Assembly: GCA_963663405.2 (NCBI GenBank)
Contig: CAXXSM010000052.1
Location: 1 to 35,348, forward strand
Reading direction: 5' to 3'
From: a bacterium
GTDB lineage: Bacteria > Hinthialibacterota > Hinthialibacteria > Hinthialibacterales > Hinthialibacteraceae
Length of the DNA stretch: 35,348 nucleotides
Shown here piece after piece: positions 9,673-34,284 of the stretch. The notes below the pieces were generated by a model. It worked only from the letters and a program-made list of their open reading frames with translations, searched no databases and was not told the origin of the DNA. How positions within the stretch are numbered: position 1 is the stretch's first letter; each line of letters starts with the position of its first letter. Both the position numbers and the translations under genes were made by a program.

Positions 9673-9714
9673 TTAATCTTCTACATACAATTCCCAATCC
9701 AATGCGCTTGATGG
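9673..9714 (-). other. C-terminal tail motif copy 1: PSSALDWELYVED*
   Basis: Translated end of the phosphatase, lying beyond the catalytic domain; three extra residues follow the motif. Confidence 0.6.
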
Positions 9715-10518
9715 AATTTGCAACAGATTCGCTCGAATCGCTGATTGGATATCCGCCCCAATGTCTCGATGGAGAAGAAACGCTTCGATCCCTCCCTCTT
9801 CATCGATCCGGTCGAAAACCATCCGCAGCCACGATTCATCCACGTAATAACCAGCTTGATTCGAACTCAGATAATCAAAGAGAATCGTTTCCCGGCCGGC
9901 GCCGAGTAATTCGAGAATCAGAGCGGTTAAAACTCCCGTCCGGTCTTTTCCCTGCGTGCAATGATAGACCAGTGGCAGGTTTTCGGGATCGGCGATCGTC
10001 TTGAGCGCATTCACGAGGGAGGACGAGTAGGTGGTGACGATGTTATAGTAGGCTTCTTGATACGTAGAACCGGTAATATAGATTGGATAATGAGAAAAGC
10101 GAAGAAAAGAACGCAAACATTCCGCGTCCGGAGCCACGTACACTTCCTCTGGAGAACGTAGATCGATCAATGAACGAATCCCTAATTCCCGCAGTATCCT
10201 GCAATCTCTCTCTGTAGCCATCTGGAACCGGTCTGACCGGTATAAAACGCCATATGAAACGCGCTTTCCATCCGTTGTTCCATACCCTCCGATATCACGC
10301 ATGTTATACGCGCCATCCAACCCTATCCAATGGATGGAAGCCATTGAAACCTGCGAGGAATTTTGCGTCCATCCAGGCATGGCGATAAGGCATAGAAAAA
10401 AAAGAAATCGGCTCTTTTTGATAATGAGCGCCCCTTTCGTTCTTTCGAATACGTCTAAATAATATCCTGAATCACTTGAATTTGTATGGATTTTATGGAT
10501 TAAGATAATCAGACTCAT
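9673..10518 (-). CDS. Exported tyrosine/lipid phosphatase (Y_phosphatase3, MptpB/IphP-like) with a W-containing C-terminal tail
   Basis: GAYNMRDIGGY, LYRSD, IDLRS, P-loop HCTQGKDRTG, DYLSSN. Signal-like KKSRFLFFLCLIAMPGWTQ; the true start is probably near 10425, after AAGGGG. Confidence 0.88.
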   Translation of the reverse strand: MSLIILIHKIHTNSSDSGYYLDVFERTKGALIIKKSRFLFFLCLIAMPGWTQNSSQVSMASIHWIGLDGAYNMRDIGGYGTTDGKRVSYGVLYRSDRFQMATERDCRILRELGIRSLIDLRSPEEVYVAPDAECLRSFLRFSHYPIYITGSTYQEAYYNIVTTYSSSLVNALKTIADPENLPLVYHCTQGKDRTGVLTALILELLGAGRETILFDYLSSNQAGYYVDESWLRMVFDRIDEEGGIEAFLLHRDIGADIQSAIRANLLQIPSSALDWELYVED

Positions 10519-10555
10519 CCGAATTCCTTGAAAATCCAGTGGGAGAGAATGACGA

Positions 10556-11098
10556 ATGCGTATCCAGATTTATGATCGTGAAACCCAAAAAACACCTGCG
10601 CGCGTTTTGGTATTCGATAGTCCCATTGGGGCAATTGCAGTTGGGTGCGCGCAGAAGGCGCTTCTTTGGATTTCTACTGGTTTTAACGCGGAAAAAAGAG
10701 CGCTTCAAAATCTAGACTCACTCGGATTCCCAACCGAACGAGGAACCAACGCGGTCTGCAAAAAAACGCAGGAAGAATTGATGGACTACTTTGTAGGAAA
10801 ACGAAAGACGTTCCGTATGCCTATCGCATTGTTTGGGACGCCCTTTCAGATACATGTCTGGCAGACGTTGTGTGAAGTTCCATACGGGCATGTCGTCACC
10901 TATGGTGAACTCGCGGCTCTCGCAGGTTACCCTAATGCGGCGCGCGCCGTTGGAACCGCCATGGCGAAAAACCGGATTCCAATCATTATCCCCTGCCATC
11001 GTGTCATCGCCACTGGTGGAAAACTGGGTGGATATGGTGGAGGGCTTGGATTGAAACGAACATTGTTAGAGATTGAAAACGCTAAACTCAGTGTGTAA
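10556..11098 (+). CDS. ogt: Methylated-DNA--protein-cysteine S-methyltransferase
   Basis: GTPFQ..VW, TYGELA, ARAVGTAM, active site IPCHRVI, GGYGGG...KRTLLEIE. Confidence 0.93.
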   Translation: MRIQIYDRETQKTPARVLVFDSPIGAIAVGCAQKALLWISTGFNAEKRALQNLDSLGFPTERGTNAVCKKTQEELMDYFVGKRKTFRMPIALFGTPFQIHVWQTLCEVPYGHVVTYGELAALAGYPNAARAVGTAMAKNRIPIIIPCHRVIATGGKLGGYGGGLGLKRTLLEIENAKLSV

Positions 11099-11123
11099 TA
11101 GGGATAAAAAACATACGAAAAAA

Positions 11124-11149
11124 AACCGTCCACCCTTGAATGGATGGTT
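11124..11149 (+). terminator. Hairpin after ogt, probable intrinsic terminator
   Basis: AACCGTCCA-N8-TGGATGGTT, preceded by an A-run and followed by ATTAT. Confidence 0.5.
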
Positions 11150-11290
11150 ATTATCGGAGGTCTCTTCAGAACAGACATACAAATCAAGAAACACCAACCA
11201 GACCGCCGCTGTTCCTCGGCAATTTCTAAAAATTGTTTTATAATCAATTTTCTGACTTTATTTCCACCGATATAAATATTGGAGAAAACC

Positions 11291-13948
11291 ATGAACGTGT
11301 TCCATATCCACCGTTATCTTCTCTTTATCTTCTCGTTTCTATTATTGACTCAATACGCCATCGGCGCCGATGAAGGCTCCTTCCACGCCTTTCCTCCGAA
11401 ATTAACGGATGGCGCCTACCCTCATCATTATAAGCCCGCCCGCACTGTTGATTTCCAAAACCTTAAGTTGGAAATCAAAATTTTGATGAGTGAGATGAAA
11501 GTGGAAGGAACGGCCCACTATCAACTGAAGCCCATTCACGGTGATGTGAAAACCATTCGGTTCGATGCAATGGAGATGGAAATCCATGATGTCAAATCAG
11601 ATCCGGATTTAGGATTGGAATGGAGCTACGCGGAGAATGAAATCTACGTCACGTTTCCTAAAGCCTTGGATCCAGAGAAGGACATCAACCTCTCAATCTC
11701 GTATTCCGCCCAGCCTAAACAAGGAATGTATTTCACCGATTCCAAACACGTGGCGCCCGTCAATCCCGATCAGATGCACACCCTTTCTGAACCATTTGGC
11801 GCCTCGTATTGGTTCCCCTGCGCGGACTATCCCGACGATCGCATGGGGACGGAAATCCTGGTGACCGTTCCAAAAGAATTCACCACTCTATCCAACGGCC
11901 AGCTCCTCGATTCCAAAGAAAAGGGGGATTGGCGTACGGACCGCTGGAAACTGAAGATTCCGCATGTGGTTTATCTGATAAGTATCGTTGTGGGTAAGTT
12001 CGATATTGTCAGGGATGAGTGGAACAGTATTCCTGTTGAGTATTACGTTGAAGAAGGTTTGGGGAAAGACGCGCGTCCAAGCATGGGCAAGACGCCTGCG
12101 ATGATTGAATTCTACAGCGATTATTTTGATTATCCCTATCCCTACGAAAAATACGCGCAGGTCTGCGTCCGGTATTTCAACGCCGGGGGCATGGAACACA
12201 CCAGCGCCACCACCATGACCGACCGGCTTGTGATTGATGAGGAAGCGCGGCTGGACACCGACATGGATGGGCTGATCGCTCATGAATTGGTGCACCAATG
12301 GTTTGGCGATCTTATCACCTGCGAATCCTGGCCGGAATTATGGCTTAATGAGAGTTTCGCGACTTTCTTCGAACCTGTCTGGTGGGAACATGCGGAGGGG
12401 GAATCGGAGTATCTAATCAATATCTTGGGCAAAATGGAGAGCTACTTTAATGAAAGCCACCAGTATACACGGCCCATCGTTGATAACCGTTTCGATGATC
12501 CAGAAGAAATGTTCGACCGCCATTCCTATCCTAAGGGCGCCTGTGTCATGCACATGATGCGTCATCAACTCGGAGAGGATCTCTTTAAAAAAAGCATCGC
12601 GCACTATCTCAAGCAAAACGCCGGGACCGTCGCCGACACGGATGAATTGATGGACGCCATTGAAGAGATCACGGGCAAACCGATGGAGCGATTCTTCGCG
12701 CAATGGATCTTCCGCCCCGGTCATCCAAAACTCAAAGTCACTCACAAATGGCTCGCTGATAAAAAGAAAGTCAAATTAACCATCGAACAAACCCAGAAAA
12801 TGGAAGAAGGCGCCGCCCCATTCGCATTCCCCTTGGAAATCGAAATCGTCACGGAAGACGGGGCGTTCATCAAAACCATCGATATCGCTAAAAAAGAAGA
12901 GACCGCCCTGATTGACTGCGAAAAACAACCGAAAAGCGTCAACATCGATCCATCGATCAAAGTGTTGATGGAATTGGACCATGAAAAAACGGAGGGAATG
13001 CTGATTGAAGATCTGAAGAATGGTTCGACCTGCATCGTCCGTTTGCGCGCCGCTCGAAAGTTAGCGGAGTATGATTCCGATTTAGTCATTGAGGCTCTTG
13101 AACGCGCGCTGTTCGACGATCCGTTCTACCGCATTCAGCAGGAAGCCGCCGATTCGCTTGGGAAGAATCATTCAAAGAAAGCGAAAGATATTCTTTTGAA
13201 AGCCTGCGCTCATCCACATCCTAAAGTGCGAAGATCGGTTGTCTCCGCGTTAGGGAAATTCTATAAAGACGACAAAGTCGACGCGGCGCTGCGCGAACGC
13301 TTCAAGAACGATGAAAGCATTCATGTCATTGCGGAGAGCGCCCGTTCTCTCGCTCGTGTCAATCCCAAAAACTGCTATTCAACTCTTCGCGCCGGTTTGA
13401 ACCGGAAAAGTTATCAGAACACGATACTCATAGCGGTATTGAACGCGCTCGCAGACCTGGAAGAACCGAATGTCTATCCAGCGCTTGTGAAATACGCAAA
13501 GGATCCTTATCCACGAAACGTGCGAATCACCGCGATCCGGCTCATTGGAGGCTTGGCGGAAAAAATCGAAAAACATCAAGAAGAGACCCGTGAATTACTA
13601 TTGGAATATCTCGGTTCCGCCTCTGATTCCATTCGCCAAGCGGCGATCTCCGGACTGCGTGAACTGCGGGATGAAAAAGCGATCCCCCATCTTCGCCGCG
13701 TCGCGGATGACGATCATAGCAAGTGGGTACGTGATTCGGCCGACCGCGCGATCAATGAAATCCGCAAAGATCAGGGAAGCGAACTGGCCGCTGAAAATGC
13801 GAAAAAACTCGATGAAATGAAGGACGAGAATAAAAAACTGGAAGATCGCATCCAGCAGTTGGAAGAAAAATTGGAAGCGGTGTTGAAGAAAGAAACGAAA
13901 GAGAATAAAGCCGCGGAAAAAGAGACCGCAGAGAAAGAATCTGAATAA
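11291..13948 (+). CDS. M1 family aminopeptidase with signal peptide, HEAT repeats and C-terminal coiled coil
   Basis: GGMEH exopeptidase motif, HELVHQWFG...WLNESFA zinc motif, YPKGA. HEAT/PBS-like repeats in the C-terminal third and a charged heptad tail. GGAG RBS before ATG 11291. Confidence 0.92.
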   Translation: MNVFHIHRYLLFIFSFLLLTQYAIGADEGSFHAFPPKLTDGAYPHHYKPARTVDFQNLKLEIKILMSEMKVEGTAHYQLKPIHGDVKTIRFDAMEMEIHDVKSDPDLGLEWSYAENEIYVTFPKALDPEKDINLSISYSAQPKQGMYFTDSKHVAPVNPDQMHTLSEPFGASYWFPCADYPDDRMGTEILVTVPKEFTTLSNGQLLDSKEKGDWRTDRWKLKIPHVVYLISIVVGKFDIVRDEWNSIPVEYYVEEGLGKDARPSMGKTPAMIEFYSDYFDYPYPYEKYAQVCVRYFNAGGMEHTSATTMTDRLVIDEEARLDTDMDGLIAHELVHQWFGDLITCESWPELWLNESFATFFEPVWWEHAEGESEYLINILGKMESYFNESHQYTRPIVDNRFDDPEEMFDRHSYPKGACVMHMMRHQLGEDLFKKSIAHYLKQNAGTVADTDELMDAIEEITGKPMERFFAQWIFRPGHPKLKVTHKWLADKKKVKLTIEQTQKMEEGAAPFAFPLEIEIVTEDGAFIKTIDIAKKEETALIDCEKQPKSVNIDPSIKVLMELDHEKTEGMLIEDLKNGSTCIVRLRAARKLAEYDSDLVIEALERALFDDPFYRIQQEAADSLGKNHSKKAKDILLKACAHPHPKVRRSVVSALGKFYKDDKVDAALRERFKNDESIHVIAESARSLARVNPKNCYSTLRAGLNRKSYQNTILIAVLNALADLEEPNVYPALVKYAKDPYPRNVRITAIRLIGGLAEKIEKHQEETRELLLEYLGSASDSIRQAAISGLRELRDEKAIPHLRRVADDDHSKWVRDSADRAINEIRKDQGSELAAENAKKLDEMKDENKKLEDRIQQLEEKLEAVLKKETKENKAAEKETAEKESE

Positions 13949-13979
13949 TCGCACGGATTATTTACTATCGTTTGTTTGA

Positions 13980-15908: not shown

Positions 15909-15949
15909 CGAAAAATCGTCTTGATAATTAATCATAAGGAGAATGCAGG

Positions 15950-17113
15950 ATGAAAATACACGAATATCAGGGGAAAGAACTGCTTAGGAAATTCAACGTG
16001 CCCGTGCCGAGAGGAACAATGGCTTCCACACCGGAGGACGCGGAAGCCGCCGCCAAGGAACTGGGAACGGATGTGGTTGTCGTCAAAGCTCAGATCCACG
16101 CGGGAGGGCGCGGCAAAGGCGGCGGTGTCAAACTCGCAAAATCTCCCCAGGAAGCGCGGGAAATCGCCTCACAAATGCTGGGCATGAATCTCGTCACCCA
16201 CCAGACCGGTCCCGAAGGCAAAGAAGTGCTCAAGGTTCTGATTGAAGAAGGGCTGCCGATTAAAAAGGAACTCTACATCGGTGTTGTCATCGACCGCGCG
16301 TCGGAGTGCCCCGTCGTGATGGCGTCCTCGGAAGGCGGCGTCGAGATCGAAGAAGTGGCCGCGAAATCCCCCGAAAAAATCCTGAAAGCCTACGTGGATC
16401 GCGCCGCCGGATTCCTCCCCTTCCAGGCGCGCCAATTGGCGTTCGGTATCGGACTGGAAGGAAAAGAAGCTCTCGCCTGCTCGAATTTCCTCTTAAAACT
16501 CTACAAAGCCTTCGAAGAAAGCGACGCTTCCCTCGCGGAGATCAATCCCCTGGTCGTGACGGAAGATGGAAAGGTGATCGCCCTCGATTCGAAGATCAAC
16601 TTCGATGATAACGCCCTCTTCCGCCATAAAGATTTCTTGGAACTGCGTGACCTGAGCGAAGAAGAGCCGCTCGAAATCGAAGCGTCCAAGTGGGATCTGA
16701 ATTATATTAAACTAGACGGTGAAGTGGGCTGCATGGTCAACGGCGCCGGGCTGGCGATGGCGACGATGGACCTGGTAAAACTCTCCGGTTCCATGCCCGC
16801 GAACTTTCTGGACGTCGGAGGAACCGCCAGCGTCGAACGTGTCGCCGCCGCGTTCGAAATTCTCATGTCCGACGCGAACGTCAAAGCGGTGCTGGTCAAT
16901 ATTTTCGGCGGTATTGTCCGCTGCGACCGCGTCGCGGGCGGCATCGTCCAAGCGATGGAAAAAGTGAACGTAACAGTCCCCGTCGTCGTCCGCCTCCAAG
17001 GCACCAACGCCGAAGAAGCCCGCGAAATCCTCAAACAAGCCGATTTCCCCTTCATCGTAGCCGAAGGCCTCGCGGAAGGAGCGGAGAAGGTCGTCGCGGC
17101 GTTGAAGAATTAA
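15950..17113 (+). CDS. sucC: Succinyl-CoA ligase (ADP-forming) beta subunit
   Basis: [64 protein letters not shown]; AAGGAG RBS. Confidence 0.97.
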
Positions 17114-17126
17114 AATTGGTAAATTT

Positions 17127-17280
17127 TTTTGTCTGAATCAGGATGGACAGGATAGAAACAGAAGGGTTTTCAAGATAGAATTTTTTATAATAAGTATCTT
17201 TCATCGAATGGGAGAAGTTTTGAAAAAGAGTAAAATATCCTGGTCATCCTTTCATCCTGACTATCCTGATTCAGACAAAA
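17127..17280. repeat. 154-bp element with perfect 18-bp terminal inverted repeats and internal periodic CAGGAT units (MITE/REP-like)
   Basis: TTTTGTCTGAATCAGGAT (17127-17144) and ATCCTGATTCAGACAAAA (17263-17280). Further (C/A)AGGAT / ATCCT units recur every 8-9 bp inside both arms; AT-rich core. Confidence 0.75.
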
Positions 17281-17345
17281 TATGGTGATTCTACAAATCC
17301 CATAATACCAAAAACTCATCATTCCCAATTTCTGTTAAAATGAAT

Positions 17346-17387: not shown

Positions 17388-17420
17388 GTAAACAATCAAT
17401 TTATTGCACGATTTCTTCCG

Positions 17421-17453
17421 TTAATGAATCGCCCAATTTGCTACGTCAACAGG
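17421..17453 (-). other. C-terminal tail motif copy 2: PVDVANWAIH*
   Basis: Translated C-terminus. Confidence 0.7.
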
Positions 17454-18293
17454 TTCTTCCCCAAGCGCCCAGGCGATTACGTTGTCGAGTAGTTTGATCC
17501 CATTTTCGTTGAGAAGCGCCATCGTCCGGGTTAATTCCTTTCCACCATATTCTGGAAGCGGCTCGACATCCGAATAGCCGAGAAAGACCCAGCGGGTATC
17601 GTTTCCTACGTCGGAACCGGCCTCGGCTACGATCAGAATGGGAACGTCCGCCGGAAGCTCCGCTCCTGTATCGGATTCATTAATCGACGTTGGCAGTACA
17701 GCGATGACTTCTCCAGCGGATAAGACAGAAGGATCAGTCACAGCCCCAAACGTGACAATCGCCGGTTCACCCGTGTCTGGATCGTCGACGGTGATACTGA
17801 ATTCCTCCGGAAGCCCCTGGGCGATGGGATGATCGGGATTCACAATTTTTACAATGGATCCCTCATTCGAGGCGCCGCCGGTAAACGCCGCAGTGCTAGC
17901 AAAACCCATGTCATCCAACACGTAGAACTCCGTTGAGATAAACGGCTTATTCGTGACCGAATAATCCCCGGCGATCGCACTGGAACCCAGCGATTCAGTA
18001 ACGAAGATTAAATCGTTCGCCTCCTCCACTACGCCAGGATCGTCATCATCTGAATTATAGATATTGGCAGTGTGCCCCAAATCATTTTCCAGATGAAGAA
18101 TGAGCCAATAGATGCCCGGTTCTTCCACAGCAATTGTTTCTAAGAGGAATTCCTTATCTTCTGGAATATTGATTGGATCTTCCCCCATTAAAAACAATCC
18201 ACCTTCAACCAAAACCGCAATATTTCCCGCCCCCGCATTCATTCCACTAGCGCATACCGCTGCGATGAAACATACCCACAATGTTTTTTTCAT
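17421..18293 (-). CDS. Acidic exported protein, paralogue 1; possible class I glutamine amidotransferase-like (ThuA-like) fold
   Basis: Sec signal MKKTLWVCFIAAVCASGMNAGA; 'DLIFVTESLGS', 'NPDHPIAQGLPEEF', 'LLDNVIAWALG'; GGAGG RBS. The fold assignment is inference. Confidence 0.8.
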   Translation of the reverse strand: MKKTLWVCFIAAVCASGMNAGAGNIAVLVEGGLFLMGEDPINIPEDKEFLLETIAVEEPGIYWLILHLENDLGHTANIYNSDDDDPGVVEEANDLIFVTESLGSSAIAGDYSVTNKPFISTEFYVLDDMGFASTAAFTGGASNEGSIVKIVNPDHPIAQGLPEEFSITVDDPDTGEPAIVTFGAVTDPSVLSAGEVIAVLPTSINESDTGAELPADVPILIVAEAGSDVGNDTRWVFLGYSDVEPLPEYGGKELTRTMALLNENGIKLLDNVIAWALGEEPVDVANWAIH

Positions 18294-18351
18294 CTTTCTG
18301 ACCTCCCATTTCGGTGAAAAGAATTTGTATATCTATCAATAAATCTATTGA

Positions 18352-18380
18352 CTTATATCAAATAATGATTAAAGAATCAA
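18352..18380 (-). promoter_or_regulatory. Putative sigma70 promoter of paralogue 1
   Basis: Minus strand TTGATT-N17-TATAAG with TG extended -10; conserved upstream of paralogue 2. Confidence 0.6.
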
Positions 18381-18419
18381 TAGAAAGATTGCTTTTAATG
18401 AATTTTTTTAATAGAGGTT

Positions 18420-18463
18420 AAAAAAAAGCCGGACCGCTTTATAGAAACAGGAAAGCGATCCGG
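18420..18463 (-). terminator. Intrinsic terminator of paralogue 2
   Basis: CCGGACCGCTTT...AAAGCGATCCGG hairpin with an A-run on + (U-tract on -). Confidence 0.7.
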
Positions 18464-18494
18464 TATAGATTAAATTTAATTGTATGAAAAAAAC

Positions 18495-18527
18495 TTATTG
18501 AATCGACCAATTTGAAACACGGACGGG
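18495..18527 (-). other. C-terminal tail motif copy 3: PVRVSNWSIQ*
   Basis: Translated C-terminus. Confidence 0.7.
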
Positions 18528-19391
18528 TTCTTCTCCGAGCGCCCAGGTAATGCAATTATCCAGCAGCAGTATTGCTTCATCGCTCAAAACCGCCAGAGTT
18601 TTTGTGTCCAGTTTGCCACCATAATCCTCGAATGTGTCTTCAATGTCATCCGAGTATCCGAGAAAGATCCATCGCGCGTCGGCGGTATCCCCAGCGTCCA
18701 ATTCCGTCCCCTGCTCGACAGCGATTACGATGGGCGCGTCAGGAGAATTCTCCGATCCATCATTGGAGACATCGATCGAGGTCGGCAAAACCGCGATAAC
18801 CTCACCGATTCCTTCCAGCAGTATGGAAGTGTCCGTGATCGTGGAAAACGTAGGCATAATCGGTTCTCCAGTAGTCTCATCAACGACAGTCGCGGTGAAT
18901 GTTTCCGGCAGGCCTGCCGCAATTGGGTGACTGGGATTCGTAATTTTGATTTCAGTCGCGATCGCGTCACCGGTAAACGCCGACGATCCCCCCGTGAATC
19001 CCATATCATCCAAAATATACGCTTCGGCGAAGATGACTGGTTTTAACGAAATCCGGTAGTCCGCCGCAACAGATCCCGAACCAAGCGCTTCGGAAATGAA
19101 GATCAAGTCGTTCGAATCTTCCACGATACCGGGATCGTCCTCATCCGAGTTATAAATGTTGACGGTATGCCCCAGATCGTTTTCCAAATGAAGAACGAGC
19201 CAATAGAGACCGGCTTGTTCAACTTCCATTGTTTCCAAGAGGAATTCTTTATCTTCCGGAATGTTCACCGGATCCTCTCCCATTAGAAACAAGCCAGTGG
19301 GAACCAATAAAGCTATATTGGCCGCCCATCCTGCGTTCACTCCTGCGACAAAAAGAAGCGCGATCAAACTCATTCGAAATAAACTTTTCAT
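18495..19391 (-). CDS. Acidic exported protein, paralogue 2
   Basis: Sec signal MKSLFRMSLIALLFVAGVNAGWA; near-identical blocks with paralogue 1 (GLFLMGEDP.NIPEDKEFLLET, LHLENDLGHT.NIYNSD); AGGAGG RBS. Confidence 0.8.
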   Translation of the reverse strand: MKSLFRMSLIALLFVAGVNAGWAANIALLVPTGLFLMGEDPVNIPEDKEFLLETMEVEQAGLYWLVLHLENDLGHTVNIYNSDEDDPGIVEDSNDLIFISEALGSGSVAADYRISLKPVIFAEAYILDDMGFTGGSSAFTGDAIATEIKITNPSHPIAAGLPETFTATVVDETTGEPIMPTFSTITDTSILLEGIGEVIAVLPTSIDVSNDGSENSPDAPIVIAVEQGTELDAGDTADARWIFLGYSDDIEDTFEDYGGKLDTKTLAVLSDEAILLLDNCITWALGEEPVRVSNWSIQ

Positions 19392-19644: not shown

Positions 19645-22284
19645 TCAGGTATGCAAACGGAAATGGATTATTGTTCCGGGAGCTAAGTTTACCTCATTAT
19701 CGAGAGTTACGATCACTTTATTGTTTTCGATGGATGCTTTCGCAGGCTGGTTGGCGCCATTTACCGCTACATCGGTCTCGATGGCGTTCTTTTCTTGAGC
19801 GGCTTTCGGAGCGGGCAACGAGAAGATGTTCAAAGTGGTATCGCTTCCATACAGCATTTTGATTTCGGCTTCCAACGACCGGGATTTCAATGTTTGTTCG
19901 TACGTTCCCCAACCAGGGCCAGCCGCCCAGAGACAGGTGAATTGTTTCTCATTGATTTTCGGATGAAAAGCAATCGTTTTCCGGGGGGCGGAGAAATGGA
20001 ATCCGGACAGGGCCAGTAGAACTGACCAGCTCGCCATCGCGCGGGCGTAATGATGACCGCATTCCACCTCGTCCCAAGGATTGCGCCGTTCACCGTCATA
20101 ACGGTTACGGACAGCTCGGACGATATTAAGGCCTTCATTGATATAACCTTCATACATCAAATGACCGGCGACTTGATACTCGATCCCCGTCCAGACTTCA
20201 TCAGAATAGACAAACGGTAGTTTCGGCCGGTCTCCTCTAGGCCACGAACAGAGAAGCAAGCCCGCTTCATCTCCAAGCGCATAGATGCGTTGTGGATTGT
20301 AATGATCCAAAAGGGTTTCTTTGAAATTATATTTATAGACAGAAAGAATCGCGCTTTTGACATGCTCTTCAGGAAGCGCATAGCCTAGATCAACAACGTG
20401 GGCCATCCATTCCCCTAAAAGCTGGTCGGACAGGCAACCAACGCCCAGCTGATATTTGGTGTCCTGCGCTTTATCGTAAACCTGTACGTAATACTCTCCG
20501 TTCCAGGTTTGCTCGTCCAATTTCACCCGTCCACTTTCGTAGATGCGTTTGTATTCCTTGGCGGAATCATCCTCACCAAGAGCGCGCGCCATTTCTTCCC
20601 CCGCTTTCAGCGCCGTCAGGTAGATCGCGCCCATCATCGGATTCGGGCCCCAGAATTCAATGTCGTAGGTGTTATGCTGCTCACCGGTCATGACGCCGTC
20701 CTTATCCGGATCCCAATCTTTCCAGGCGAATTCCAGCGCGCGTTTCGCGCCGGGCCAGACGCTTTTCAGGAATTCCATATCCCCGGATAGCTGCCATTCA
20801 CGGTAGAGTTTAATAATGGTTCCCATCTGCCCATCCGCGGCGGCTTTAAATTGCCAGCGAGCGAGTCCGAGGGGGATTAACGAGCGGAACGCCATGTGAC
20901 CTTCCTCGTTGGTGTTGAAATTGAAATCCGTGTCGCGCATGGTGCGTTCCAAGCGGGGAAAGAGATGCGCGAGCGCTTGTTCGTAATTCCATACGTGCGT
21001 GCAGTTCATCGGACAGCAGCCTTGTGTATCCGACGTGCCCTCGAAACCCCAGAATTTACCTTCTTTATCGCGGAAACAGGTGTTCGTGCGGATAATGGAA
21101 GCTTGGCTGGAAACCGCATCCAATACCTCCGGCGGCAGGGTGCTGGAGAAGAGCGCTTGGTGGAAGAGCCGGGTTTCTCGCTCCAAGCGTTCCAAATTCT
21201 TCATTGTGTACGCGGCGGCGTCCCAAGCGTCCTTGAATTGTTCTGTATAGAAATTACCGACGATTTTCCCATTGACCGCTTCTTCCCGGTTCCAGTGATT
21301 GTCCCGGTTGGGGAAATACCAAGAGATCAAGAAGGGAACTGTCGCGCTGTCTCCCGGTTTAAGCTTGAGCATGGCGCCCACGGAACCGACATCGGTCTTT
21401 CCATCCGGACTGGGGGACGCTTCGGTCACACTGTCGAGACGTCCATCATCGGAAAAATCATTCCAGAAAAGACTTTGCGCGTCGAACCAGCCTCCCCGGT
21501 CCCAATGGGTGGTGTAGGTGACTTGATCGAAAGGAGTCACCAAGGCCATGTTGCCATAGTTGATGGAATCTTCTTTGTGCTTGCTTGTCGTCATTTTCAA
21601 GCCGCGCAACGAGCCGTCATCCACATATTCGTTGAGATTCTGTCCGAAATCATCAACGCCGGCGATATTTTGAAGCGACGCCATGATGGTAAGATCGACA
21701 GGCTTACTGCTCTTATTGGAAACTTGCCAATAAAAGATGGCCACCGGCAGGCCGGAATCCTTTTCATTGTTGGGAATGAAAGGATTGAAACATTCCAGGG
21801 ATACATCGAGGGGAACCCGTGAATCTTCCAGTTCCAACCGCGCGAAGGGATACGATCCAAGGAACCGGGCTTTCTGAAATCGGGGCATTCCCGGTAATTG
21901 CGATCGGCTCAATCCGAATCCACCCCTAAAAGGAGGCGCCATTTGGGATTCCAAAATACAGGCGCGTGGATCGCGGCCCTCTTCCTGATACCAGAGAGCG
22001 AAGAAGGAACTGTCGAGTGTGCGCCCTTTGTGAGGTCGGTTGCAGATCTCCCAATCCCGCAGAGCGCCCCGGCCGCCGACAGACACGGTTCCCGTCCCGA
22101 TCCCGCCAAGAGGGAACGCGATCTCAGACAGAAACGGTTCTTCGAAGACGCGCCAGACTTGTTCGTCCGTCTGTTTTTTTTGCCTCCGCACCGCTGACAT
22201 CTGCGCCTGCGCCCCAGCGCCGAACATCCCCATAAAAGAAGCCGCGCTGAGAACCTTTAACACTTCCCGCCGTTGTAAATCCAT
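19645..22284 (-). CDS. Glycoside hydrolase family 116 (GBA2-like) with Tat signal
   Basis: AAGGAGG RBS, MDLQRREVLK Tat leader; FPLGGIGTG, GFEG...GCCPMNCTHVWNY, AADGQMG, QHNTYD, YSDEVWTGIEY, ECGHHYARAMASW. Confidence 0.92.
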   Translation of the reverse strand: MDLQRREVLKVLSAASFMGMFGAGAQAQMSAVRRQKKQTDEQVWRVFEEPFLSEIAFPLGGIGTGTVSVGGRGALRDWEICNRPHKGRTLDSSFFALWYQEEGRDPRACILESQMAPPFRGGFGLSRSQLPGMPRFQKARFLGSYPFARLELEDSRVPLDVSLECFNPFIPNNEKDSGLPVAIFYWQVSNKSSKPVDLTIMASLQNIAGVDDFGQNLNEYVDDGSLRGLKMTTSKHKEDSINYGNMALVTPFDQVTYTTHWDRGGWFDAQSLFWNDFSDDGRLDSVTEASPSPDGKTDVGSVGAMLKLKPGDSATVPFLISWYFPNRDNHWNREEAVNGKIVGNFYTEQFKDAWDAAAYTMKNLERLERETRLFHQALFSSTLPPEVLDAVSSQASIIRTNTCFRDKEGKFWGFEGTSDTQGCCPMNCTHVWNYEQALAHLFPRLERTMRDTDFNFNTNEEGHMAFRSLIPLGLARWQFKAAADGQMGTIIKLYREWQLSGDMEFLKSVWPGAKRALEFAWKDWDPDKDGVMTGEQHNTYDIEFWGPNPMMGAIYLTALKAGEEMARALGEDDSAKEYKRIYESGRVKLDEQTWNGEYYVQVYDKAQDTKYQLGVGCLSDQLLGEWMAHVVDLGYALPEEHVKSAILSVYKYNFKETLLDHYNPQRIYALGDEAGLLLCSWPRGDRPKLPFVYSDEVWTGIEYQVAGHLMYEGYINEGLNIVRAVRNRYDGERRNPWDEVECGHHYARAMASWSVLLALSGFHFSAPRKTIAFHPKINEKQFTCLWAAGPGWGTYEQTLKSRSLEAEIKMLYGSDTTLNIFSLPAPKAAQEKNAIETDVAVNGANQPAKASIENNKVIVTLDNEVNLAPGTIIHFRLHT

Positions 22285-22339
22285 TGTGTTTTCCTCCTTG
22301 TGGTTATATGTGAATTTCTTTTTTGCGTTAGATAAGGCG

Positions 22340-22855
22340 CTATACAGTTTTCTCCGGAATTCGTTCAATCGAAAACTCATTAAACAATCTTTTCCATAAA
22401 GTCAGATTAAGAATAAAACAATTATTGATATATTTTCTTTTCCATGGGGAGTCCATTTCTTTCTGGATATTATCAAATAAATGTTCCTTCATAGGAATTA
22501 AGTCATTATCATAAATGCTGCCTGGTTCCAATACGATGAGAACAATAAAAATAATTGACTTATCATCCTTTTCCATAAGGTGAAGGTAGGTATAACTATC
22601 CCGGCATTTCGGAACGAGTTTTGAGATCAATTCTCTAGTTTTTAGCTTTTTAAGAAAGTCTTTCGACGATTCTCGAGTTGCTTGCGTATGGAAGGGATCT
22701 TTTACTTCAATCATGTATCTTTTATCATCAAGTTCAACGATGAAATCGACGAAACTCATTCCTTGTGGAATAACCGTACCTTCCTCATCCAGTTTCAGCA
22801 CATCTACATCTTGCGGAAATCCAAATTTTAATTCACCCTCATGAAAGAATTTCAT
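22340..22855 (-). CDS. Hypothetical protein with PD-(D/E)xK nuclease-like motif
   Basis: 'VDFIVELDDKRYMIEVKD' and 'KCRDS'; starts 9 bp after the ATPase stop, with an AAGGA RBS; AT-rich. Confidence 0.7.
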   Translation of the reverse strand: MKFFHEGELKFGFPQDVDVLKLDEEGTVIPQGMSFVDFIVELDDKRYMIEVKDPFHTQATRESSKDFLKKLKTRELISKLVPKCRDSYTYLHLMEKDDKSIIFIVLIVLEPGSIYDNDLIPMKEHLFDNIQKEMDSPWKRKYINNCFILNLTLWKRLFNEFSIERIPEKTV

Positions 22856-26578: not shown

Positions 26579-26623
26579 GATATATTTTCCTTATTGTTGT
26601 AATGCTGTCTCATTCCTGCCAAT

Positions 26624-27844: not shown

Positions 27845-28025
27845 GATTCTTCTCCTCCATGATGGTATCCCAATTGGATTCAACCGGCGCGTCTTCATTC
27901 GCAATCAACATTTCCAATCCCACTCGATTCCACGCCGTTTTTTACCCAACTATTATAAGGTCACTTTACGGTAAAAAGAAAGTATGGGGAGAGAATGCCG
28001 CTCTTGGATTGCAGAACACGCGCTT

Positions 28026-30899
28026 TTATTCGGACTGATTCCGATAGATCATTTTTAACAACGTAGGCAGGAAGACAACGCTCGCAAACCAGCAGATCCC
28101 CGATCCCAACGCCATCAATATTCCTAAACTCGCCAGTCCTTTATGCGAAGCGAATATTAAACTGCCGAATCCGGCGACTGTGGTCAGCGTTGTCAGAGTC
28201 AGCGTCGTTCCGGTTGTGTAAAGGCTTTTGTCCACGTCTTTGCATTCATTGAACCGGTGGACAAAGTGGACGGCGTCGTCTACGCCAATACCGATTAAAA
28301 TGGGGATTGCGAAGAAATTCGCCAAGTTGAGATGAACGTCAAGAAGGCCCATGATCTCCACAAGCCACAACACCGCCAGCGCCAGTGGGAACAATACATA
28401 GAATAAGGATTTTAGTGAGAGAAAATCCAACATCACTAAAATTGCTACGACGATGAAAGAGAGAATTCCGATCTTGATAAACGCGTCGCGCATTAAGAGA
28501 CTGGATTCATAAACTTGGATCGGCACACCTGTCACGTTAGGATCGACGGCGCGCATATCGCTGACAAATTCACGCATCCGTTCTGTATTCCATATGTTTT
28601 CCTTGGGATACGCCATCACCAGAAGCGAATTGTCTTTCCCGACAAATATTTTTTTAAACGCGGAGGGAACGCTCGAAGGAGTGGGTTTTGGTTCAGAAAG
28701 TAGTTTCGCCAGCGATCGCAGCGATGCGCGTGGCTGTTCAAATAATATGGAATTCGCATTTTGAAGACGCGCTTCCACCTCACCATGCGGGCCGCTTAAC
28801 AATCGATTCAGTTCTTTCAGTTGATCCAGCGGCGCGTCGTTCAGTTCCTCCAGTTTCTCTTCCAATTCCTTCCGCTGATTGACTAATTCCGTTGCGGAGA
28901 CGATCTCCACATCGGCGTTCTTCGCCATTTCGCTTGCATTGAGAGCCGCTGAATTGGGATATTGCTCAGCCATACCGGCGTATTCGGGGGGGATGGATTG
29001 GGGATCGATAGAGGCGCTCTCATTAATATTTGATGGGATCATGGATTCCATTTTTTTTAATTCTTCTTCCGCGTTTTTGAACTGTTCAATCCCACTTTTC
29101 AGTAATTCAATTTGCGCGAATAGAGTATCGAGCCGTTTCGTCAGATCACCATAGATCTTAGGATTGGGTAAGTAGTGATAGCGCTTGTTGATGGGGAAGG
29201 AGAAGAGCGTTTTGCTGGCGGAATCGATCAGTCCTTGCTTCGTCTTTGTCATATTCGGCAACACATCATCCAAACTATCCACATGAGCCACGGACGGGAT
29301 TTTCTTTAAGGTCTCGACGGTTTTTAGCATCTCTTCGTACGAAGGTTCCAGAAACGCGCAATACCAAGTGGAATGATCGGCTTGATCAATCAATAGGCGT
29401 TCATACGTGACGGATTCAAGCCCATCGGCCTGTAATTTGAGAAGGTTATCGTCAAAGCGGACACGAAAAGCGTATGGAAGAAGCGCAATCGTAAGAACGA
29501 GAAAACAAATCACCGTCAAACGTGGATAGCGCGACACATGGCGCAATCCCAAGAGATGAACCGGCGTGGGGATCGAATTCCCTTTTCGAAGATGGCGGTC
29601 GTATGTGACTAATAAGGCGGATAACGTGAGAAGCATCGCGACCAGGCAGAAGAGAATCCCAACGCCAGCAACATATCCGAGTTCGGCCAATCCCCGGAAA
29701 TCAGTAAGGAGCGCGAGTAAAAACGCTACTGACGACGTGAGCGCGCCAGTAATAATCCCGCTGCCGACACCCTGAAGCGCGTTCCAGATCCCACCCGCTG
29801 GATTTCGTGTTTGATCCAACTCTTCTTGATAGCGGTGCAGATAATGAATCCCAAAATCGACGCCCAACCCGATAAGTACCAAAGCGAATACCAGCGAGAG
29901 CAGATTCAAATGACCGAGAGTCAGCGCGACGAATCCATAGGTCCACCCCATCGCCGTCAAGAGCGCGATGACCGCTAAGAAAGGACGGATTAGTTCGCGG
30001 AAAAAGATCACAAACAAGAGAAGAACCGCCACGAGCGCCAACAGGCTGGCGCGCAGCATATCGTTGTTCGTCGTTCGCATTTCATCGGCCTGCAAGGCGG
30101 GGCGCCCGGTCAATCCTACCTGCACATTGGGGAAATCCTGTTGGGTCAACCAGATATCGGTGCGGATACGATTGAGAGGCTCTTCGATTACACTTAAGGT
30201 GGCGTAATCCTTGGCTGGCATTACCAGCATGATTAAAAAGCGTTTGCCGGTGGACCAGTTATATTTTTTTTCGCCCCATTTCACCTGCGCGAGTTCGTCT
30301 TCTAACTCGGAGAATGATTCAAATGAATCATCCCGCCGGTTCTGCAGCGCATCCAGCAGAATCGAAAGATCCTCTTCGATTTCCTCCGTGGCTATTTTTG
30401 TCCGGCTGGTGGAGACGCGCAGTTCATTTGTCATACGATCGAGGATTTCATCGATATGACTCACACTGTAAAGATCCCGCAGATCATCCCGATGTTGGTC
30501 CAATTCATTGTCAAGACGTTTTAAATCATCGAGGGAGGCGTAATACAGCGCGGCGTCCTTAATCCAGGCTGTATCGAAGGCATAGATCACATCGCCAACG
30601 TCCGCGCATTGTTTCAGGCGGGCCGAGAGCGCGTCAGCGAACGCGATAGTTTCCTGTTCGTTTTTGCTTTCTATGACAATGTATAAAAATTCAAGATCCC
30701 CGAATCGATCGATGAAATCGAGGTACCGGCGGTGGTAGTCCAAGCGTTCAGAGATGAGCTGATCCTGATCCGCGATCATCTCCATATGCTCGACTCCATA
30801 CCACCCCGCCAATGCGGCGGCGCTGAATGAAAGCAGAACGATCCAACGGGGATGATGGGAAACTAGAAAGTGGATACAACGAAAAAGACGAATTCTCAT
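28026..30899 (-). CDS. hpnN: MMPL/RND family transporter, hopanoid-associated HpnN-like
   Basis: Two repeats of periplasmic loop plus TM bundle; GLTGRPALQADEM, IGLGVDFGIH, IGIGVDDAVH; ATGA overlap with the hpnO stop. Confidence 0.8.
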   Translation of the reverse strand: MRIRLFRCIHFLVSHHPRWIVLLSFSAAALAGWYGVEHMEMIADQDQLISERLDYHRRYLDFIDRFGDLEFLYIVIESKNEQETIAFADALSARLKQCADVGDVIYAFDTAWIKDAALYYASLDDLKRLDNELDQHRDDLRDLYSVSHIDEILDRMTNELRVSTSRTKIATEEIEEDLSILLDALQNRRDDSFESFSELEDELAQVKWGEKKYNWSTGKRFLIMLVMPAKDYATLSVIEEPLNRIRTDIWLTQQDFPNVQVGLTGRPALQADEMRTTNNDMLRASLLALVAVLLLFVIFFRELIRPFLAVIALLTAMGWTYGFVALTLGHLNLLSLVFALVLIGLGVDFGIHYLHRYQEELDQTRNPAGGIWNALQGVGSGIITGALTSSVAFLLALLTDFRGLAELGYVAGVGILFCLVAMLLTLSALLVTYDRHLRKGNSIPTPVHLLGLRHVSRYPRLTVICFLVLTIALLPYAFRVRFDDNLLKLQADGLESVTYERLLIDQADHSTWYCAFLEPSYEEMLKTVETLKKIPSVAHVDSLDDVLPNMTKTKQGLIDSASKTLFSFPINKRYHYLPNPKIYGDLTKRLDTLFAQIELLKSGIEQFKNAEEELKKMESMIPSNINESASIDPQSIPPEYAGMAEQYPNSAALNASEMAKNADVEIVSATELVNQRKELEEKLEELNDAPLDQLKELNRLLSGPHGEVEARLQNANSILFEQPRASLRSLAKLLSEPKPTPSSVPSAFKKIFVGKDNSLLVMAYPKENIWNTERMREFVSDMRAVDPNVTGVPIQVYESSLLMRDAFIKIGILSFIVVAILVMLDFLSLKSLFYVLFPLALAVLWLVEIMGLLDVHLNLANFFAIPILIGIGVDDAVHFVHRFNECKDVDKSLYTTGTTLTLTTLTTVAGFGSLIFASHKGLASLGILMALGSGICWFASVVFLPTLLKMIYRNQSE

Positions 30900-32333
30900 T
30901 CCGCGCTGCCAGTGAGGGAGGCCGCTCCCTTTTTTGTAAATGCGTTGAAACGCTGTTTCGCCGCCGCGCCGGCCAATTGTTTGCCCACGCTCCAAACCGG
31001 GCCGGGAAACCGTTTACATTTATCCAAGACGGAATCAAAAGCGTTGATCAACCGGTCTACTTCCTCTTCCGTAATGATCAGTGGCGGCAGTAATTTAACA
31101 ATCTCTTGGTTATGTCCCGCGACCTGAGTCAAGATTTTTTGGTTTTGATAGAGCTGCATGACGACCGCCTGCGCGAAGAGACCATTCTGCGCGGCGTGCA
31201 ACAGCGCCCAGGCGGGTTTGAGCAGCAGCGAACGAGGCGGACCGAATTCCATGGCGATCATCAAGCCTTTTCCCCCGCACGTCCTTAATAAACTCATGCT
31301 TCTCCTTCAATTGAGATAAACCCCCAAGCAGCTGTTGTCCCCGTTTCGCCGCGCGCAGGGGAAGACGATCTTCTTCGATCACATCCAGCGCCGCCAATCC
31401 GGCCACCATCGCTAAGGAATTCTGCGCAAAGGTTGAGGAATGGACGACACAGCGGTCGAGACGGCTGAAGACCTTCTTGTAGATTTCTTCCGTGTAGAGA
31501 ATGGCGCCCACAGGGATGAGGCCGCCGCTAAGGGCTTTCGCGGCGGTCAGGATATCCGGTTGCAGATCCCAGTGTTCACAGGCCCACCATTTTCCCGTCC
31601 GGCCCAGACCGCATTGAATCTCATCCGCAATTAAGAGAGTTCCATGCTTCCGGCAGAGACGTTGAATCGTGGGGTACACGTTATCGTATTTCGGAAAATA
31701 GACACCCTTGCCGCGAATGGGTTCAAGAATAACGGCGGCTACGTTCTCTTGTTTCAGCGTCTCCTCAACTTCGGTCAGATCTTCCAAATTCACTTTCTTG
31801 CAACCGGGCAGCAGATCGCCGAATCCTTCCCGGAACGATTCATCGCCGTTTAACGATAGAGCGCCCGTCGTCAAACCATGAAAGGCGGATTGGTTGAAGA
31901 GAATATAGGGGCGGCCCGTCGCGGCGCGGGCGAACTTGATCGCGCCTTCAACCGATTCCGTACCGGAATTCGTAAAGAAGACGCGTTGTAATCCCTTGGG
32001 GGCTTTCGCGATCAGTTTTTCCGCCAAGAGACCGCTGAGGAGAGAACAATCCATCTGCGGCAGTGAGGGCAGTTCCATCTCCAGCGCTTGCAGGATCGCA
32101 TTACGGATCACGGGATGGTTCCGGCCCATCCCAAACACGCCGTATCCGCTGAGCGCGTCGAAGATCTCCCGGCCGTCCAGCGTCGTAAGATAACAGCCCC
32201 GGCCATGCGTGTATTCATGCGAGAATCCAATCAAATCCAACACGTTGGAGAATACGGGATTGACGTATTCCTCATGCAGCCGCCGGGCCTGACCGTTCGA
32301 AGCCGGGATCAGAGAATGTAGATCGAAGACCAT
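30896..32333 (-). CDS. hpnO: Class III PLP aminotransferase, HpnO-like (aminobacteriohopanetriol synthesis); one-base frameshift at ~31270
   Basis: LSGYGVFGMGRNHP, FFTNSGTESVEGAIK, FHGLTTGALS, DEIQCGLGRTG, AKALSGG, RCVVHSSTF. Removing one A from GGGGGAAAA joins DVRGK to GLMIAMEFGPPRSL...ILTQVAGH...KLLPPL. Confidence 0.85.
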
Positions 32334-32394
32334 AATTATATGTTCGTATTCCCATCGGGGAATGGCTTAAGCGCTCGAATAGTGCGCTTGAGGA

Positions 32395-32619
32395 TTATTC
32401 TTCTGTGATGGAGACGCCGTGTTTTTCCATGACGGCGCGCCATTCGGCTTCATCCATCTCTTCGGATTCCTCCACGAGCATGATGGGGATATCGTCTTTG
32501 ATGGGATAGCGTTTCCGGGTTTCGGAATCGGTCGAGACGATCCAATCGCCTTCCAATACCACTGGGGCTTTGGTCTGTGGACAGGCGAGAATCTCCAATA
32601 ATTTCTCACTAATCGGCAT
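32395..32619 (-). CDS. Trm112/YcaR-like small protein
   Basis: LLEILACPQTK...YPIKDDIPIMLVEE; GGAG RBS before MPISEK. Confidence 0.85.
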   Translation of the reverse strand: MPISEKLLEILACPQTKAPVVLEGDWIVSTDSETRKRYPIKDDIPIMLVEESEEMDEAEWRAVMEKHGVSITEE

Positions 32620-32695
32620 GATAGTTCTCCGCTTGGTTCTCAAGTGATAAATAAATTCTGCTTTATTATATATCCAATCCCCCGTTTATTGAATT

Positions 32696-33797
32696 TCACC
32701 GCAGCCATTCATCAAGATGCTGCGCGACGAATTCGTCATCATGGAGATGGGGATAATCGGCATAGACACGGTCGATCTCTTCCTTCTGGCCGGGGGAAAG
32801 ATCTTCGTCGGGATTGAGACACCACCGTCCCTGCATCAATCCTTGCCGGCGTAACACTTCATGAATCCCGGCGATACAGCCCGCGAACTGATTTGCAGGA
32901 TCGAAGAACGCGGCGTTGGAATCGGTGACTTGAATGGCGCGTGTTAACCATTCCTGCGGCACGGGGGATTGCGATTCTGACAGCGCGTGGGCTAGCGCGT
33001 GGGCTTCTTTTAAAAGTGTAACCGCCGATTGGGTCCAGACCGCCCAGTGACCGAGAAGCCCGCCCACGATCCGCAGTTGGACCGGCTCTCCATTCACCAT
33101 GATCTCATACGCCGTAAGAAGATCGAGAACGATATTATCGTCATTCCCCGTATACAGCGCAATCTCCCCCGCGCGGCCCGCTTCCGCCACGGCGCGCACG
33201 ACATCGAAGGTCTGATAGCGGTTGAAGGGAGCCATCTTAATCGCGGTCACATTGGGGATTTCACAGAATTGACGCCAGAATTCATAGCGCAGAATCCGTC
33301 CACCCACCGACGGTTGGAGATAGAATCCCATCAAAGGGATCACCTCGGCCACGGCGCGGGAATGCGCGAGCAGTTCTTCATCCGGCGCCTTCGAAAGCGC
33401 TCCCAAGCTCAGCATTCCGATTTGATATCCCAATTCCCGCGCCAGTTCCGCTTCGGCGACAGCTTGCTGTGTTGGGCCGCAGATCCCAGCGATGCGCACG
33501 ATGGACGAATCGGGCGTTTTCTGTTCAAACTCAGAGATCGTCTCCGCCGCCAATCGTCTCAGCACGCCAATTCCAGCACTGCAGACCCACTTCCGGCTGA
33601 CGGATCTCAAACTGGGTCGTATGCACCCCCACCGCCAATCCACCCGCTCCTGCGGCGAGGTAATACCGGCTCAAAGCCCGCTGATACCGCTCATCCAGTT
33701 TCCGCTCCGCCGTCAAAGCCAATGGATGCGCGGGAATCACAAGCCCCCCCCGCAACACCCGCTCGATCGATTTCTCTAAAGAAGGATACTCAACCAT
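32696..33797 (-). CDS. Dihydrodipicolinate synthase-like (DapA/class I aldolase) family protein; frameshifted near 33580
   Basis: N-terminal VIPAHPLALT...GGLAVGVHTTQFEIR (33531..33797) continues in ORF 32696..33643 with IAGICG, GFYLQPSVGG, AIKMAPFNRY, LYTGNDD, GGLLGHW. Confidence 0.85.
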
Positions 33798-34024
33798 AAC
33801 AATCCGCTCCTGTTTTCCTTCCAGTGTATCCGAAGGACGGGTTTGGAGAAAGAAGGAATGGGGGTGTTTCGGCGTGGATTTTTGATTTTAGGAGATAATG
33901 ATTTTGATGTGACATTTGTTGATTGTTGGTAATGATGTGATAGTATTGAAAAACTATTGTTATAGAAAGAGAGACGTGTACTATATAATATAAAATAGGG
34001 ATGTCGTTCAATTCCAAAAAATAG

Positions 34025-34237
34025 GTGAGTCAGAAAATGGACGCTCAGAAAAAGCCGCTGTTTATTCAGGGAATCGAAAATCCAGAAACCATAGATGAGG
34101 ACGCATCTAAGGAAGATTTTTTATCTAATCCAGAAAAAAAATCAGTTACGAAAATATTTAAGTTTAAAACTAATGAATTGCGGAAATTGAAACCTACGAT
34201 AACATCACTTCGTCCATCCGTGGAGATAGACGATTGA
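34025..34237 (+). CDS. Small hypothetical protein
   Basis: 70-aa ORF filling the gap between minus-strand genes, with a TATAAT upstream; no recognisable motif. Confidence 0.35.
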   Translation: MSQKMDAQKKPLFIQGIENPETIDEDASKEDFLSNPEKKSVTKIFKFKTNELRKLKPTITSLRPSVEIDD

Positions 34238-34251
34238 TCTTTACACGTTTC

Positions 34252-34284
34252 TTAATGCAGAAACCAATCTGATACTGCTGTTTC
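34252..34284 (-). other. C-terminal tail motif copy 4: ETAVSDWFLH*
   Basis: Translated C-terminus. Confidence 0.7.

Follow-up and report, generated by a model that had tools for sequence, protein, structure and literature searches.

A phylum-wide, modular peptide tag at the C-termini of exported soluble proteins in Hinthialibacterota

Introduction

Why should four exported proteins of three unrelated types, all encoded on one bacterial contig, end in a similar short peptide? This question is raised by a stretch of 35,348 nucleotides (GenBank assembly GCA_963663405.2, contig CAXXSM010000052.1; hereafter the window) from a member of the phylum Hinthialibacterota, in which a tyrosine-phosphatase family protein, two acidic paralogues and a leucine-rich repeat (LRR) protein carry at their C-terminal ends a peptide of 8-10 residues built around a tryptophan, here called the W-tail. 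The window corresponds to contig C52 of a metagenome-assembled genome (G000) of 8.44 Mb, which comprises 170 contigs and is 82% complete. In an initial annotation the tail was interpreted as a short tag that is added in a modular fashion to unrelated proteins with signal peptides and that fits none of the known C-terminal sorting classes. In this study, we establish that the window tails are instances of a new tag, phylum-wide and modular, which exported soluble proteins bear at their C-termini. We document below that the motif is strictly preferred at the protein end, that it is modular and linked to signal peptides, that it is conserved in the phylum and that known models lack it, and we then discuss how such a tag might act.

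Results

The W-tail is a motif of protein ends

Open reading frames (ORFs) of G000 were called with a home-made procedure (not Prodigal), which retained the longest non-overlapping ORFs of at least 90 amino acids and yielded 6783 ORFs covering 85% of the genome; C-termini are set by stop codons and are independent of start calling. The pattern W-x-[LIVMF]-[YHQ] stands at the exact C-terminus of 123 of the 6783 ORFs, against 2.9 expected from the internal frequency of the same pattern (1009 occurrences in 2,343,045 positions). One residue before the end, the core pattern was found in 21 ORFs, and at two to seven residues before the end in 0-4, which corresponds to background. With a 10-column matrix, 143 exact C-termini scored at least 10 bits compared with 0.14 expected from the internal rate, and 165 C-termini scored at least 6 bits; a further 22 were found at offset +1. 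Because the 123 pattern hits served to train the matrix, these absolute counts are partly circular, while the contrast between C-terminal and internal positions is clean. The enrichment at C-termini that the initial annotation had anticipated is thus present in the genome.

The consensus reads [E/P]-[TVS]-[PSA]-V-x-[DN]-W-x-[LIV]-[YH]-COOH and follows a short polar or proline-rich linker. Among the 123 ends, T, V and S occupy position -9 in 57, 31 and 21 cases, P, S and A position -8 in 30, 27 and 19, V and I position -7 in 89 and 16, and D and N position -5 in 31 and 29. L, V and I are found at -2 (74, 23 and 17) and Y, H and Q at -1 (90, 29 and 4); the W at -4 is present in all 123. The conserved hydrophobic positions are -1, -2, -4 (W) and -7 (V/I). 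Immediately upstream E and P are enriched, and conservation ends at about -12, being confined to the last 10-12 columns. All four codons are used for the valine at -7 (31, 26, 25 and 22 times) and six codons for the leucine at -2. Such free synonymous variation at conserved residues argues for selection on the peptide and not on the DNA.

Some WD40 and LRR paralogues that score below the threshold carry degenerate tails, in which W is replaced by F in some cases or the protein ends in ...SLYE or ...FELYP; either these tails have decayed, it seems, or the motif should be defined more broadly. An internal copy of the motif was observed in a 767-amino-acid ORF (G000:C106:68413-70716), whose body resembles, by eye, VIT and von Willebrand A-like domains: a match of 22.2 bits (...SVPVNDWFLH) is followed there by about 115 residues that start with an acidic DDDGDG stretch, which may reflect read-through or a fusion after the tail.

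Carriers belong to many families and are mostly exported

Altogether 170 carriers were counted (143 exact, 22 at +1 and 5 at +2 to +4), a lower bound since weak tails fall under the threshold. After removal of the last 14 residues, single-linkage clustering of BLAST matches grouped them into 71 clusters with sizes of 43, 22, 5, 4 and 4, six of 3, fourteen of 2 and 46 singletons. The initial annotation counted only three independent examples, a number that has to be revised to 71 independent clusters in this genome alone. Among 20 cluster representatives searched against Pfam, 11 were without any domain and nine had domains of nine kinds, namely CBM9, M56+Kelch, WD40, NHL, beta-helix, esterase, SGL/NHL, FG-GAP and FGE-sulfatase.

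Signal peptides were assigned by a home-made heuristic (not SignalP) in a strict and a lax version. Under the strict version, 121 of 161 complete carriers were positive compared with 1816 of 6496 other ORFs, and under the lax version 137 of 161 compared with 2713 of 6496 (Fisher p 5e-29). The association with signal-peptide proteins, the other enrichment anticipated by the initial annotation, is thereby seen as well. The carrier N-termini that were inspected are classical Sec signals for signal peptidase I (SPase-I). A Tat-like RR motif is present in four of the 121 tail proteins with a signal-like N-terminus; the exclusion of Tat proteins that had been implied by the initial annotation therefore does not hold genome-wide. 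Lipoproteins are rarer among carriers (3/122) than among the signal-peptide proteins used for comparison (113/1376, p 0.02).

The tail is found across the phylum

The distribution of the tail was followed with a degenerate DNA pattern of 24 bases encoding V-x-[DN]-W-x-Φ-[YH]-stop, where Φ is hydrophobic, and with the reversed pattern as control, in 35 genomes of the phylum from six families. G000 itself gave 49 matches and one control match. At least one match was detected in 34 of the 35 genomes and at least four in 33 (range 4-49, or 4-43 in the 32 other than G000; controls 0-3). The fragmented assembly of G026 (family f4) gave three, and no match was obtained in G028, an 84% complete genome of family f6. 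In a 378-kb sample of G028, none of 301 ORFs reached a matrix score of 6 bits, where about seven would be expected. R, A, G and P prevail at the protein ends of this genome, whose G+C content is therefore probably much higher than that of G000. On loci of the most distant families, f4 and f5, 28 translated ORFs end in the tail, and a signal peptide was seen wherever the N-terminus is present on the locus.

Outside the phylum, 111 genomes gave 0-2 pattern matches, which is the control level: 0-1 in a set of six genomes, 0-1 in five named genomes and 0-2 in 101 Planctomycetota, one of which is shared with the five. Hinthialibacterota (OLB16) were formerly placed in Omnitrophota, according to the text of PMC9324843, and the homologues of the acidic paralogue described below carry the NCBI name 'Candidatus Omnitrophota bacterium'; in the nearest cluster of the Atlas, 'Candidatus Poribacteria' is the commonest label. 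A search for related loci gave none with the acidic paralogue as query, and with SucC it gave 80 loci of other phyla, none of which exceeded 69% identity. In the text of PMC9324843 the term 'C-terminal' does not occur.

The four tails of the window

The four C-termini quoted in the initial annotation are all encoded in the window, on the reverse strand, and the three cargo types named there are indeed unrelated, comprising a Y_phosphatase3 protein, two paralogues without a Pfam family and a protein with LRR_4 repeats. The three tails that end exactly at the stop codon score 18.5-23.8 bits on the 10-column matrix. The acidic paralogues form a tandem (17421..19391) and are 58% identical; the gene of the first (17421-18293) ends in the tail PVDVANWAIH (17424..17453, 22.6 bits) and that of the second (18495-19391) in PVRVSNWSIQ (18498..18527, 18.5 bits). 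Upstream of them, on the same strand, lies an ORF of 911 amino acids with a Tat-like signal (19645-22380) that is without a tail. The LRR gene extends from 34252 past the window end at 35348, with its reading frame visible to 35346 and its 5' end cut, and its product ends in ETAVSDWFLH (34255..34284, 23.8 bits). This protein belongs to a genomic LRR family of 50 members, 22 of which have a tail above threshold and several more a weaker version.

The phosphatase gene (9673-10518; Pfam Y_phosphatase3, E 1.8e-45) differs from these in that its product, which ends ...PSSALDWELYVED*, continues for three residues after the tail. Codon-by-codon reading places the tail PSSALDWELY at 9685..9714, followed by VED (9676-9684) and the stop codon (9673-9675). 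The tail scores 20.6 bits at offset 3, and only 6 of 2,268,432 internal positions in the genome reach 16 bits or more; it is therefore a genuine tail with an extension of three residues. The Tyr codon is followed by G and then by TAG in the +1 frame (9673-9690), and from this arrangement of bases a one-base insertion appears as a possible origin of the extension. An assembly error was ruled out, as a 97%-identical protein (P0028) from another source ends identically.

The initial annotation ascribed a Sec-like signal to all four proteins. It is clear in both acidic paralogues, which have Sec/SPase-I signal peptides. Of the other two, the visible N-terminal residues of the cut LRR protein match the end of the signal peptide of its paralogues, and the long ORF of the phosphatase contains a signal-like stretch, while its orthologues have clear signal peptides.

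Conservation and predicted structure of two cargo families

A total of 27 database relatives of the acidic paralogue was found, and homologues at 46-63% identity keep the motif as a peptide. All 18 homologues that were fetched end in x-V/I-x-x-W-x-[LIV]-[Y/F/H/R/W/N], with the W at -4, and W287 is invariant in an alignment of 20 sequences. In the phosphatase family, a signal peptide and the W of the tail are present in each of the 12 closest relatives, which belong to the clade. Five of these end exactly at the tail, three have one additional residue, one has three (the 97% twin of the window protein) and three have 7-15 extra residues. Three more distant homologues stop right after the last helix of the domain and lack the tail, and two of the three also lack a signal peptide. 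The tail is thus an addition specific to the clade that goes along with export and usually, though not always, sits at the very end. Together with the 170 carriers in 71 clusters, the tail-less distant phosphatases bear out the view of a short modular tag on unrelated signal-peptide cargo.

In AlphaFold2 (AF2) models, the acidic paralogue has a mean pLDDT of 88.5, compared with 48 in its last ten residues, and a phosphatase orthologue has 82.8 overall; in both, pLDDT is below 50 over the last five residues. The tail is thus predicted to be a free and flexible end outside the fold of the cargo. For the acidic paralogue a ThuA-like or class-I glutamine-amidotransferase-like fold was predicted, with 4pxy and 1t0b as best PDB matches (TM score about 0.5).

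Known models do not describe the tail

In ten full-length tail proteins no C-terminal match to Pfam or NCBIfam was obtained at E up to 1, and ten C-terminal pieces of 40 residues matched no family at E up to 10. No existing family model in these two databases accordingly covers the tail. A search of G000 with TIGR04183, the model for the C-terminal domain (CTD) of type IX secretion system (T9SS) substrates, gave no match, but as control genomes likewise gave none, this search was without a positive control. No description of the motif was found in the literature, as judged from abstracts and from passages of PMC9324843. After the tail follow either no residues (123-143 ORFs) or a single one (21-22 ORFs), and hence neither a hydrophobic helix nor a basic cluster.

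Genes near the tail genes and candidate machinery

Among all-against-all gene families, one was enriched within three genes on either side of tail genes, and it is prepilin-like (36/137, p 4e-6). For 19 tail genes a pilin-like gene is the immediate neighbour, in 15 cases with both genes in the same orientation, whereas random gene sets gave 7.2 +/- 2.5 and 0 of 500 reached 19. In comparison with other exported genes, the effect is about twofold, with an adjacent pilin-like gene at 18 of 170 tail genes versus 72 of 1376 other signal-peptide-like genes (odds ratio 2.1, p 0.0085). This adjacency is a weak lead to the machinery. A complex prediction for one tail protein and the adjacent pilin-like protein, run without controls, gave a score of 0.00 and weighs neither way.

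The prepilin-like proteins (N_methyl, FTLIELL-type N-terminus, about 200 amino acids, for example L129:972-1559, corresponding to G000:C10:8293-8883) are expanded to 137-147 copies in G000. At least 150 pilin-like matches each were obtained in G012 and G021, and 35-51 in G026, G027 and G028. Together with the eight secretin loci above the cut-off in G000, this expansion resembles the pilin-like expansions of bacteria of the PVC (Planctomycetes-Verrucomicrobia-Chlamydiae) group. Tail genes are not clustered near secretins, as only two lie within ten genes on either side of the eight loci.

PDZ proteins of G000 form an ordinary set, with four of HtrA type, three of S41 type and two others. A beta-helix+PDZ protein is not conserved even among tail-bearing genomes. 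One ORF of 1108 amino acids (G000:C132:84155-87481, L135) is an unusual fusion of a BlaR1-type M56 sensor, a YscJ/FliF_C-like part, PDZ and an S41 peptidase; as a whole this fusion was not found in five other genomes, in which its separate parts were matched.

Discussion

The W-tail shares general features with several groups of known signals and differs from each of them. Tags of the LPXTG and PEP-CTERM type are short, occur in a modular fashion on dozens to hundreds of signal-peptide proteins and are restricted to clades, as described in the abstracts of 10.1101/2023.06.07.544157 and PMC11980579. Like LPXTG/sortase, PEP-CTERM/exosortase, GlyGly-CTERM/rhombosortase, MYXO-CTERM/myxosortase and PGF-CTERM/archaeosortase, the W-tail is short, modular, C-terminal and clade-limited. 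However, tripartite signals consist of a signature, a transmembrane helix and a basic cluster and are cut by a membrane enzyme, whereas the W-tail ends at the stop codon; as no transmembrane helix follows the tail, this class of sorting signals is excluded. The T9SS CTD is a C-terminal tag on Sec-exported cargo of many families, which it directs across or onto the outer membrane, and it is found clade-wide, according to the abstract of PMC11285876. The W-tail resembles it (Por_Secre_tail) in being clade-wide and in sitting at the C-terminus of soluble proteins from many families that are exported by Sec. The T9SS CTD (models TIGR04183 and PF18962) folds into a beta-sandwich of about 70-100 residues, however, and the W-tail consists of 8-10 flexible ones. 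That the tail fits no known C-terminal sorting class, as the initial annotation had argued, is thus strongly supported by the missing helix and basic cluster and by the family searches, including that for the T9SS CTD with the limit given above.

The beta-signal of outer-membrane proteins (OMPs), which BamA/BamD recognize, and the Y-x-F terminus by which OMPs activate DegS are also C-terminal, have an aromatic last residue and are read in the periplasm. As in the OMP beta-signal, about ten C-terminal residues with an aromatic-like end are found on Sec-exported proteins. In contrast to OMPs, carriers of the W-tail have soluble folds (LRR, ThuA-like alpha/beta, phosphatase, WD40) and not beta-barrels, and the hydrophobic residues of the tail lie at -1, -2, -4 and -7, with Trp at -4, instead of alternating at -1, -3, -5 and -7. 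Substrates of type I secretion are exported in one step and have no N-terminal signal peptide, unlike most of the complete carriers (121 of 161 with a Sec-type signal).

Taken together, we infer that the tag is a sorting signal that determines the destination of the cargo and that a reader binds its carboxy-terminus. In the most economical mechanism, end recognition by a periplasmic or outer-membrane reader would commit the cargo across or onto the outer membrane, the role that the initial annotation had proposed, and we lean slightly towards this mechanism. Cargo would first cross the inner membrane, mostly via Sec and signal peptidase I and in a few cases via Tat. The tail would then hang flexibly off the folded domain, and a dedicated periplasmic or outer-membrane reader would bind the free C-terminal peptide with its W-x-hydrophobic-aromatic end. 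This reader would commit the cargo to a post-periplasmic step, in which it either crosses the outer membrane or becomes attached to this membrane or a surface structure. The closest analogy for such a mode of action is the peroxisomal targeting signal PTS1, a short, uncleaved C-terminal peptide (-SKL-COOH) on folded, unrelated cargo whose free end is recognized by the TPR domain of PEX5. PTS1 differs from the W-tail in being eukaryotic and cytosolic and in its sequence, and we know of no bacterial periplasmic counterpart. It is tempting to speculate that a sorting pathway of its own exists in this one phylum, in which an uncleaved PTS1-like tail without a transmembrane segment sends folded proteins across or onto the outer membrane and the reader belongs to no known family of secretion systems; we regard this as a serious possibility, with the chances somewhat against it.

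Several observations weigh against end recognition and against sorting in general. No reader or machinery was identified, and no candidate tested follows the presence and absence of the tail across genomes. The tail-less G028 possesses secretins (7), pilin-like genes (35), Omp85 (two genes) and S41/PDZ proteases like the other genomes. The 22 tails with one additional residue and the phosphatase orthologues with 3-15 residues past the tail, the window protein included, contradict a strict requirement for a free carboxylate. A few carriers (M56+Kelch) are membrane-anchored and sensor-like, which is a poor fit to a secretion signal, although their tails are weak matches. Furthermore, the background of the signal-peptide heuristic is high (28-42%) and the ORF caller is crude. 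The term sorting itself is chosen by analogy to other modular C-terminal tags.

Different explanations of the tail were therefore considered. A nucleotide-level signal at gene ends or an artefact of composition or annotation might be suspected from the over-representation of TAA stops in tail genes (88 of 139, compared with 3043 of 6783 genome-wide). Synonymous codons nevertheless vary freely at the conserved residues, the reversed pattern gives 0-3 matches per genome against up to 49 for the pattern itself, homologues at 46-63% identity keep the motif as a peptide, and C-termini do not depend on start calling. Such an origin is effectively refuted by the codon variation, the reversed control and the conservation in homologues. 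A specific version of the favoured mechanism would be a secretion signal of the type II or type IV pilus-like kind, with the tail read by a pseudopilin or some other part of one of the many secretin systems in G000 and the folded cargo expelled or displayed on a fibre. Substrates of type II secretion are exported by Sec or Tat, fold in the periplasm and then cross the secretin; W-tail cargo likewise uses both Sec and Tat, and the genome is rich in secretin (8 loci) and pseudopilin-like genes (137-147 prepilin-like copies), which adjoin 19 tail genes against 7.2 +/- 2.5 in random sets. This twofold enrichment of neighbours (odds ratio 2.1 against exported genes) is the only link of the W-tail to type II secretion, however, and it is limited to 11% of the tail genes, which do not cluster near secretin genes. 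Moreover, the tail-less G028 keeps 7 secretin and 35 pilin-like matches, the tail-bearing G027 has only 51 pilin-like ones, and substrates of type II secretion are not known to carry a linear C-terminal signal. We consider this version unlikely.

Alternatively, the tail might be a tag for a periplasmic PDZ protease, either HtrA/DegS-like or S41 (Ctp/Prc)-like. In that case it would not sort proteins but serve as a pro-peptide to be removed, as a mark for degradation or as a signal of envelope stress comparable to the Y-x-F ends of OMPs. A preference for the end and hydrophobic or aromatic last residues would suit a PDZ domain that binds carboxylates, the tail is predicted to be flexible and accessible, and the genome encodes four HtrA-type and three S41-type proteases, one S41 peptidase being fused to a BlaR1-like M56 sensor. 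However, these protease families occur in most bacteria, and S41/PDZ relatives are also present in the tail-less G028, so that they show no link to the tail. The hydrophobic positions of the tail (-1, -2, -4, -7) also differ from the -1 and -3 of the usual PDZ classes. In addition, it is hard to explain why a degradation tag should be kept under purifying selection in about 2.5% of the proteome, in 71 families and across a phylum, and a protease tag is in our view improbable. Another alternative would be a non-covalent anchor or docking peptide, which binds outer-membrane lipid or lipopolysaccharide (LPS), an S-layer, peptidoglycan or a dockerin-cohesin-like scaffold without any translocation. 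Trp together with Tyr or His is typical of membrane interfaces and carbohydrate binding, lipoproteins, with an anchor of their own, are under-represented among carriers, and tails with 1-15 extra residues would be better tolerated by such an interaction than by a reader of the carboxylate. On the other hand, 7-10 residues make a short peptide for binding a membrane stably, the steep drop to background past +1 favours end recognition and no scaffold family was found; we consider docking an unlikely explanation. The type II version, the protease tag and docking nevertheless count as live alternatives.

Conclusions

If the proposed sorting pathway is true, about 2.5% of the proteome and roughly 8% of the exported proteins would be routed by the W-tail. 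The W-tail is found on both enzymes and binding proteins, among them LRR, CBM9, sulfatase-related and esterase proteins. As an annotation rule the motif is simple and of high specificity, with less than one chance occurrence per genome compared with more than 140 observed. A handle for finding the machinery is provided by the tail count per genome, with the tail-less G028 serving as a natural negative within the phylum. Should the tail be a sorting tag, it would represent a new class of bacterial C-terminal targeting signal that has no membrane-spanning segment and presumably a new reader, and the secretome and surface proteome of a whole uncultured phylum would become readable from sequence alone.

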